This document shows, in pieces, positions 1 to 669 of a DNA stretch of 19,489 nt. The stretch is from a virus (Duplodnaviria; Heunggongvirae; Uroviricota; Caudoviricetes): IMG/VR virus record IMGVR_UViG_2609459850_000001; one strand, given 5' to 3'. How positions within the stretch are numbered: position 1 is the first letter of the stretch; every line of letters begins with the position of its first letter. The position numbers were made by a program, and so were the translations under genes. The notes under the pieces are model-generated. The model worked only from the letters and a program-made list of their open reading frames with translations, searched no databases and was not told where the DNA came from.

Positions 1-304
1 GATCCGGCAGGGCGCTATCCAGGGATAATCGGGCAAACAGGCGCATGGAGGCGATTTCGTACAGGGCATCTTCCATGGCACCGTCGCTCAGGTTGTACCA
101 ATGCTGCATGCAGTGAATACGCAGCATGGTCTCCAGCGGATAGGGCCGTCGGCCATTGCCCGCCTTGGGATAAAACGGCTCGATGACAGCGGTCATATTC
201 TGCCATGGCAGAATCTGCTCCATGCGGGAGAGGAAAATCTCTTTTCGGGTCTGACGGCGCTTAGTGCTGAATTCACTATCGGCGAAGGTGAGTTGATGGC
301 TCAT
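1..304 (-). CDS. insH: IS5 transposase InsH, N-terminal 101 codons (3' part outside window)
   Basis: Reverse-complement translation from the ATG at 304-302 gives [101 protein letters not shown], which I recognise as the InsH N-terminus. It is absent from the ORF track because it has no stop inside the window. Confidence 0.9.
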
Positions 305-372
305 GATGTCCCTCTGGGATGCGCTCCGGATGAATATGATGATCTCATATCAGGAACTTGTTCGCACCTTCC
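1..372 (-). mobile_element. IS5: IS5 insertion sequence, partial (one end; rest lies left of the window)
   Basis: Terminal inverted repeat GGAAGGTGCGAACAAG is present as its reverse complement at 357-372. The transposase N-terminus reads outward from it on the - strand. A 4-bp CTAG immediately flanks the end (373-376), matching the IS5 YTAR target preference. Confidence 0.9.
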
Positions 373-669
373 CTAGTCTGTTTAGTATTAGCATCAATTT
401 CTCATCAGATGCTATTCAACAATACAAATTACCCATAAACCTCGTTTTTACGGGGTTTTGTTATATTTAAACATTACCGAATAGGTATAAATCTCGATTG
501 TCGATGGTATTGGTTGTGTGACAATACCTAGTCTTTCCGGTATGCCTGAAGAGAATACAAACGACAGATTATGTAAGGGAAACGCGCTGAATCTTTAACT
601 CTTTCATGCTGAGTGATTTGACGTTATATTTTTAGCCGTAAGTGAAGAGCAAACGCATGGAGCGACAAA

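Follow-up and report, generated by a model that had tools for sequence, protein, structure and literature searches.

A putative ISKpn26 insertion next to gnsB among the late genes of a Qin-type lambdoid prophage

An IS5-family element end beside an intact right flank

The stretch of DNA analysed here (hereafter the window, 19,489 nucleotides in full) has a layout that fits a lambdoid late region, with cos, terS, terL, the portal gene and the genes onwards to J carried on one strand. The gene for the large terminase subunit is the next one after terS, and the morphogenesis operon runs to J at the window's end. The left edge is occupied by 372 bp of an insertion sequence (IS) of ~1.2 kb whose other end and DDE domain lie outside the window. 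A preliminary description of this DNA had placed an IS5-family element ahead of cos and terS within the late region of such a prophage, and our analysis agrees with this placement. The features of the element and of the region to its right are collected in Table 1.

Table 1. Features at the left edge of the window and in the adjoining late region (positions are those of the window; a full stop marks a feature with no strand assigned)
Feature	Position	Strand	Basis
ISKpn26 transposase-proximal end (assigned by sequence identity)	1..372	-	100% to annotated copies; 88.2% to K-12 IS5A; remaining ~823 bp left of the window
Transposase, first 101 codons, ATG at 304-302	2..304	-	Pfam DUF772, E = 7e-14; annotated CDS in identical copies
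16-bp terminal inverted repeat (GGAAGGTGCGAACAAG on the minus strand)	357..372	.	Same-end repeat identical in IS5 and ISKpn26
CTAG target site	373..376	+	In IS-free relatives, end of gnsB: third base of the last Ile codon, then the TAG stop
Terminator-like hairpin and T-run	437..458	+	9 pairs; fold energy -11 kcal/mol, z = -2.2
68-aa ORF (YbcW or hypothetical in relatives), intact	670..876	+	Exact protein in 37,923 blocks of a public collection; no Pfam match
Candidate cosN cohesive-end sequence GGGCGGGAGCGT	1243..1254	+	Phage record termini; 12-nt length by analogy with lambda
terS, small terminase subunit (DUF1441)	1429..1923	+	Pfam E = 3e-41; annotated terminase small subunit in phages
terL, large terminase subunit	1923..4025	+	GpA_ATPase and GpA_nuclease domains; coordinates mapped against D72

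The right-hand terminal repeat of the element is present in the window as CTTGTTCGCACCTTCC, the reverse complement of the IS5-family terminal repeat, and CTAG follows it directly. Terminal repeats of this family are 16-bp imperfect repeats found at both ends, with the pattern GGAAGGTGCGAA(T/C)AAG. The start codon on the minus strand and the DUF772 match of the encoded product confirm the earlier claim that the transposase gene is antisense to the late genes. The part of the transposase that lies in the window yields DUF772 only, and a DDE_Tnp_1-type domain is found in full copies whose ends are identical to the window. Opposite the transposase gene, on the strand that in IS5 carries the ins5CB genes, a 91-aa ORF (101-376, plus strand) runs past the element's end without interruption, and its stop codon is the TAG contained in the target CTAG; this ORF has no Pfam match. 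The window starts with GATC, and its origin as a Sau3AI clone insert was considered and dropped when its end proved not to be GATC.

Bases 1-372 of the window are identical, at 372 of 372 positions, to the ends of two full annotated ISKpn26 copies. The copy used as the ISKpn26 reference is that of STEC383 (L003:3929-5123), which is 1,195 bp long and is flanked by a matching TTAG duplication, and the second comparison copy is that of S1-CAM-01-A (1,196 bp). The reference for IS5 was IS5A of Escherichia coli K-12, to which the window segment is 88.2% identical over the matching stretch. When compared at full length, ISKpn26 and IS5 are 94.4% identical, and elements are counted as the same IS under the ISfinder rule when their nucleotide identity exceeds about 95%. 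Window positions 1-376 are matched by 3,376 records, of which 2,081 are E. coli records with at least 99% identity, and many of the 100% matches carry the E. coli annotation 'IS5-like element ISKpn26 family transposase'. A second group of records (1,062 matches at 80-90% identity) is what we take to be IS5 proper. Judged by nucleotide identity, the element is ISKpn26 (IS5 family, IS5 group) and not IS5 sensu stricto. The preliminary description had named it an IS5 copy because both elements have the same 16-bp terminal repeats; the IS5-family end and the adjoining CTAG that it reported are indeed present, and the name is the part that requires revision.

The STEC383 copy, although annotated as ISKpn26, looks like a mosaic of IS5 and ISKpn26. 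It matches K-12 IS5 exactly over its first ~100 bp and at 99% over the next 100 bp, and the remainder is ISKpn26-like. These ~200 bp are only 71-88% identical to the ISKpn26 of S1-CAM-01-A.

To the right of the element, window positions 373-19489 carry 7 mismatches over 19,117 bp relative to the IS-free Qin-type prophage of D72 (NZ_CP035312). By this comparison the DNA on this side of the IS is unchanged, with nothing lost, and includes the hairpin, the ybcW-like ORF, cos, terS, terL and the head and tail genes to J. The D72 structural genes in the region equivalent to the window are all annotated without pseudogene flags. The hairpin does not vary in the alignment of the window with three IS-free relatives (four sequences in all) and is likely to be the gnsB terminator, which would now lie 1.2 kb further from gnsB owing to the IS. 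From the end of the element, the distances are 870 bp to the presumed cosN nick and 1,056 bp to the terS start codon, as the preliminary description had given them in rounded form. The cos site that it put forward as a candidate is backed by the termini of two phage records, with the Tritos record ending at window position 1242 and the mEp460_4F5 record starting at 1238. The local sequence, CCACG followed by GGGCGGGAGCGTCGCGG, resembles lambda cosN.

Several smaller features were observed in the same flank. A perfect 10-bp inverted repeat (TACTGTAATA / TATTACAGTA, with a 6-nt spacer) is located at 1299-1324, in the interval from cosN to terS, and may represent a site for terminase or IHF. There is also a 9-bp inverted repeat at 912-942, and TGTCAGGCT is repeated at 942 and 1202, just ahead of cos, a motif that is multiplied in Tritos. 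Further along, a ClpP-like protease and the major capsid protein are fused in one 675-aa product (5687-7714), and the tail chaperone pair G/T has the usual overlapping arrangement (10195-10919), both as annotated in D72. A search of the whole window against Rfam returned no known RNA family.

The upstream part of the late region, with the lysis cassette and morons, is seen in the 99.96%-identical D72 locus. This locus holds a Qin-type lambdoid prophage between rspA and ydfJ/ydfK, which is the position of Qin in K-12. Its late genes are ordered essQ, ydfR', rrrQ, rzpQ, cspI, ymcF, ynfN, gnsB and the 68-aa ORF, and continue from terS (DUF1441) with terL, portal, the ClpP-capsid fusion, tail genes, J, lom, stf, tfaQ and pin. 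The Q antiterminator (Phage_antitermQ, E = 7e-51) is present in D72, PSS-11 and 2017.06.04CC, and is absent in GF66.2.

It had also been suggested that the IS deleted or disrupted moron genes of the bor/ybcV type. To the right of the element this finds no support, as the window is colinear with IS-free D72 from base 373. A minus-strand DUF1398 gene (ybcV/ydfO-type) is found near the position of window 504-511 in Tritos and in K-12 Qin. This gene is absent from IS-free D72, PhiR63_1 and mEp460_ev081, and the window is identical to D72 across 504-511. Because IS-free D72 is also without it, the absence of the ybcV-type gene predates the IS. The DUF1398 moron thus marks a presence/absence point between the gnsB terminator and the ybcW-like ORF.

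The target site and the proposed insertion

Alignments of the window with D72, PhiR63_1 and mEp460_ev081 all begin exactly at base 373. Since the homology of these IS-free relatives starts precisely where the terminal repeat ends, the IS boundary is not a chance match. The IS-free sequences at this site read ...ATT GAT TTA ATC TAG, which is the end of gnsB, and in both D72 and PhiR63_1 the gnsB coding sequence terminates at the target CTAG. IS5 is known to produce a 4-bp repeat at targets of the C(A/T)A(G/A) type, with CTAG and CTAA named among them, and shows a bias to AT-rich intergenic DNA (PMC11677980). The mark expected of ISKpn26 is a 4-bp direct repeat of a target of the C/T-T-A-A/G type. 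The choice of target in the window fits IS5-family behaviour because the site is of this type and lies in AT-rich DNA: the GC content is 37% in the interval 373-700 and 55% in the structural operon. The tetranucleotide CTAG occurs 3 times in the 19.5-kb window (positions 373, 528 and 1267), versus about 74 occurrences expected from base composition, and all three sites are within the 1-kb AT-rich stretch that precedes terS.

We propose that ISKpn26 transposed into the CTAG that overlaps the gnsB stop codon, within the AT-rich DNA separating the lysis genes from cos, and that the target was a lambdoid prophage of the Qin type, resident at rspA/ydfJ in E. coli. The element would then lie directly after gnsB, with its transposase gene pointing back to gnsB and antisense to the late genes. 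If this was a simple insertion with the usual 4-bp duplication, gnsB would keep its stop codon, and the left junction is predicted to read ...GATTTAATCTAG joined directly to GGAAGGTGCGAATAAG... (with the gnsB side also given as ...GATTGATTTAATCTAG). The local effects of such an insertion would be that gnsB is uncoupled from the terminator hairpin, that gnsB and the transposase gene are convergently transcribed, and that 1.2 kb is added at 870 bp from the right cos end. On this basis gnsB has probably remained whole, although cut off from its terminator. Q-modified late transcription would be expected, from precedent, to traverse the element. We assign a probability of about 0.72 to the overall reading that ISKpn26 resides at the gnsB stop in a Qin-type prophage whose late genes are still read through, with the insertion representing a neutral or mildly degrading hit.

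Searches for the junction itself were carried out in several collections. A 36-base junction pattern had 0 matches in species-representative genome contigs and 0 in JGI metagenome contigs. When 5,426 complete E. coli genomes were searched by megablast with the sequence spanning the junction, the same site was not found; only STEC383 was returned, in which ISKpn26 is located elsewhere (in the ymcF region). In exact-protein look-ups, a 55-aa junction-spanning ORF was not on record, and those with the 68-aa ORF and terL found no locus with the same junction; the terL look-up turned up S1-CAM-01-A. Because it was not found in the 5,426 complete E. coli genomes, the exact site could serve as a strain marker.

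Origin of the junction and transcription across the element

The IS could instead mark the junction of a deletion or rearrangement, caused by recombination between two ISKpn26 copies or by an IS-mediated adjacent deletion, in which case the DNA to the left would not be gnsB, and the lysis genes and the cspI-gnsB morons would be partly lost. This is a real possibility for the window because such an event is seen in the near-identical prophage of S1-CAM-01-A (CP145714), which has about 4 mismatches to the window over 18,963 bp, as estimated from the bit score. There, an ISKpn26 in the same orientation occupies the next CTAG, at the equivalent of window position 528 (L029:1910-3105), with differing flanks, TTAA to the left and CTAG to the right. 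A total of 4,178 bp is missing, from inside an AraC-type gene through essQ, rrrQ, rzpQ, cspI, ymcF, ynfN and gnsB, so that the AraC-type gene has lost its 3' part and the lysis cassette is gone entirely. The S1-CAM-01-A genome carries at least 40 ISKpn26 matches, which provide ample substrate for recombination, and other IS-bounded deletions of the same prophage are present in D72 and GF66.2. Losses linked to ISKpn26 are also on record for Klebsiella prophages (PMC6908951). However, the breakpoint in the window falls exactly on a canonical target tetranucleotide beside an untouched right flank, as is the outcome of plain insertion. In addition, the left junction of S1-CAM-01-A was seen in that strain alone, and a parental copy common to both was looked for without success; for this reason, an origin of both events as adjacent deletions from one parental IS was dropped. 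We consider a deletion junction unlikely, though far from negligible, given that plain insertion into such a target happens more often and that the DNA on the right is undisturbed.

The preliminary description had raised the possibility that the antisense IS is polar on the whole morphogenesis operon unless Q-type antitermination reads through. In its strong form, this would mean that the terminase, head and tail genes are off and no particles are made. Some observations point in this direction: the late-sense strand of ISKpn26 is mostly untranslated and contains C-rich, G-poor windows with potential for Rho loading, quuD transcription in uninduced K-12 was inferred not detectably to cross the nmpC copy of IS5 (PMC11677980), and the same source cites reports of terminator-like sequences in IS5. 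However, the late-sense strand of ISKpn26 holds only two weak terminator-like sites with 5-bp stems, which is no more than chance. Moreover, phage 434B (OL657227) carries an IS5 at 42020-43214, between Q and the holin gene and ahead of all late genes, with its transposase gene antisense, and the nmpC::IS5 of DLP12 in K-12 has the same arrangement (PMC11677980). This read-through precedent is set by IS5, which is 94% identical to ISKpn26 overall, rather than by ISKpn26, and the viability of 434B is deduced from the fact that a complete phage genome was deposited for it. The Q proteins of 434B and the D72 prophage are 86% identical and both match Phage_antitermQ, and Q-dependent antitermination is described as processive (PMC7171158). 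The hairpin at 437-458 is located between gnsB and terS in the IS-free phage isolates mEp460_ev081, PhiR63_1, HannyBb and Tritos, and because a conserved terminator already stands in this interval, late transcription of these isolates would be terminator-resistant. Lambda Q reportedly suppresses polarity, a finding attributed to Forbes and Herskowitz (1982). As for particles, the D72 prophage is without int, immunity and replication genes, so its particle production would be blocked for other reasons. By analogy with these systems, strong polarity on the morphogenesis operon seems unlikely, and a complete shutdown of terminase, head and tail genes quite improbable. Within the element, Rho may terminate transcripts that lack Q modification, for example ones started at moron promoters. 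A further suggestion is that the IS acts as an activator, through an outward or hybrid promoter at its end or through IS5-type bent DNA, so that the lysogen would express the ybcW-like ORF or the terminase genes. IS5 activates the neighbouring operons bgl, fucAO and glpFK (PMC11677980), and the ins5CB strand of the element faces the phage genes. However, a promoter scan of the plus strand at and across the junction found no promoter-like site, and a hybrid promoter picked out by hand at the junction (TTCGCA-16-TAGTAT) was rejected with 8 of 12 positions matching. The hairpin at 437-458 also separates the IS from all genes downstream. Little activity is reported for the ins5CB promoter, and the bent, IHF-binding region of IS5 is at the opposite end of the element (PMC11677980). 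With no promoter at the junction, a weak ins5CB promoter and the bent end on the other side, downstream activation is very unlikely.

Insertion sequences in related prophages and comparison with known systems

Close relatives of this prophage carry a variety of IS elements. In D72, IS1A abuts a truncated rspA, in place of the integrase, immunity and replication regions (L017:18573-21714), and the first genes of the prophage are rem, ydfU (with a frameshift) and Q, with an apparently intact packaging, head and tail set behind Q. Q is lost from GF66.2, which contains two IS3-family copies. PSS-11 has IS3-family insertions upstream of rrrQ and in a DUF2190 gene, together with a truncated tape-measure gene. 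The tape-measure gene of ES3 is interrupted by TnAs1. In STEC383, which has no structural genes, an IS3-family element is present in rzpQ and ISKpn26 in ymcF, and in 2017.06.04CC, ISKpn26 is located between the AraC-type gene and the holin gene and is accompanied by IS3 and IS66 copies. Thus, ISKpn26 is found elsewhere in the late region of STEC383, S1-CAM-01-A and 2017.06.04CC. A comparable pattern has been described for ISKpn26 in Klebsiella prophages (PMC6908951). As far as these sequences reveal, the pattern is that of a 'grounded' prophage lineage eroded by IS elements, and the insertion at gnsB would best be viewed as another neutral or mildly degrading IS hit in a lineage that accumulates such hits.

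One could ask if Qin-type prophages have an orientation-biased hotspot for ISKpn26 in the short AT-rich interval that runs from the lysis genes to cos. Two of the three CTAG sites are occupied by ISKpn26 in independent strains (373 in the window and 528 in S1-CAM-01-A), and the transposase gene is antisense to late transcription in all four late-region ISKpn26 copies (the window, STEC383, S1-CAM-01-A and 2017.06.04CC). The transposase is likewise antisense in nmpC::IS5 of 434B and DLP12, and five cases (the four ISKpn26 copies plus 434B) are not significant. We regard a hotspot as doubtful. If it were true, selection or target-DNA structure could steer IS5-group elements, which would then be regular agents of prophage 'grounding'.

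The insertion is an ordinary event, in which a very common IS is found in a cryptic prophage whose closest relatives are decaying through IS activity. Its value lies in annotation: the element should be named ISKpn26, and silence of the packaging and structural genes further downstream should not be taken for granted.

Comparison with known systems places both the prophage and the element. K-12 Qin shares with the prophage described here the rspA/ydfJ-side locus and the gene order essQ, ydfR, rrrQ, rzpQ, cspI, ynfQ/ymcF, ynfN and gnsB. However, Qin has lost almost all of its structural genes and carries ydfO/ynfO after gnsB, whereas the window and D72 keep terS through J and are without ydfO. 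The nmpC::IS5 insertions of DLP12 and 434B have in common with the window that an IS5-group element resides in a Q-dependent lambdoid late unit, among morons, with its transposase gene antisense. In those two cases the IS lies between Q and the holin gene and interrupts nmpC, whereas the ISKpn26 of the window is located after the lysis genes, adjoining the gnsB stop and 870 bp before cos. With IS5 of K-12 (the insH copies), ISKpn26 shares terminal repeats, length class (1,195 bp), organisation and target type. At 88.2% identity over window 1-372 and 94.4% for the whole element, however, it is best described as a sister element rather than an IS5 copy. With ISKpn26 the element in the window shares 100% identity over 372 bp, the 16-bp repeat, the transposase N-terminus and an IS5-type target, with no difference in the visible part.
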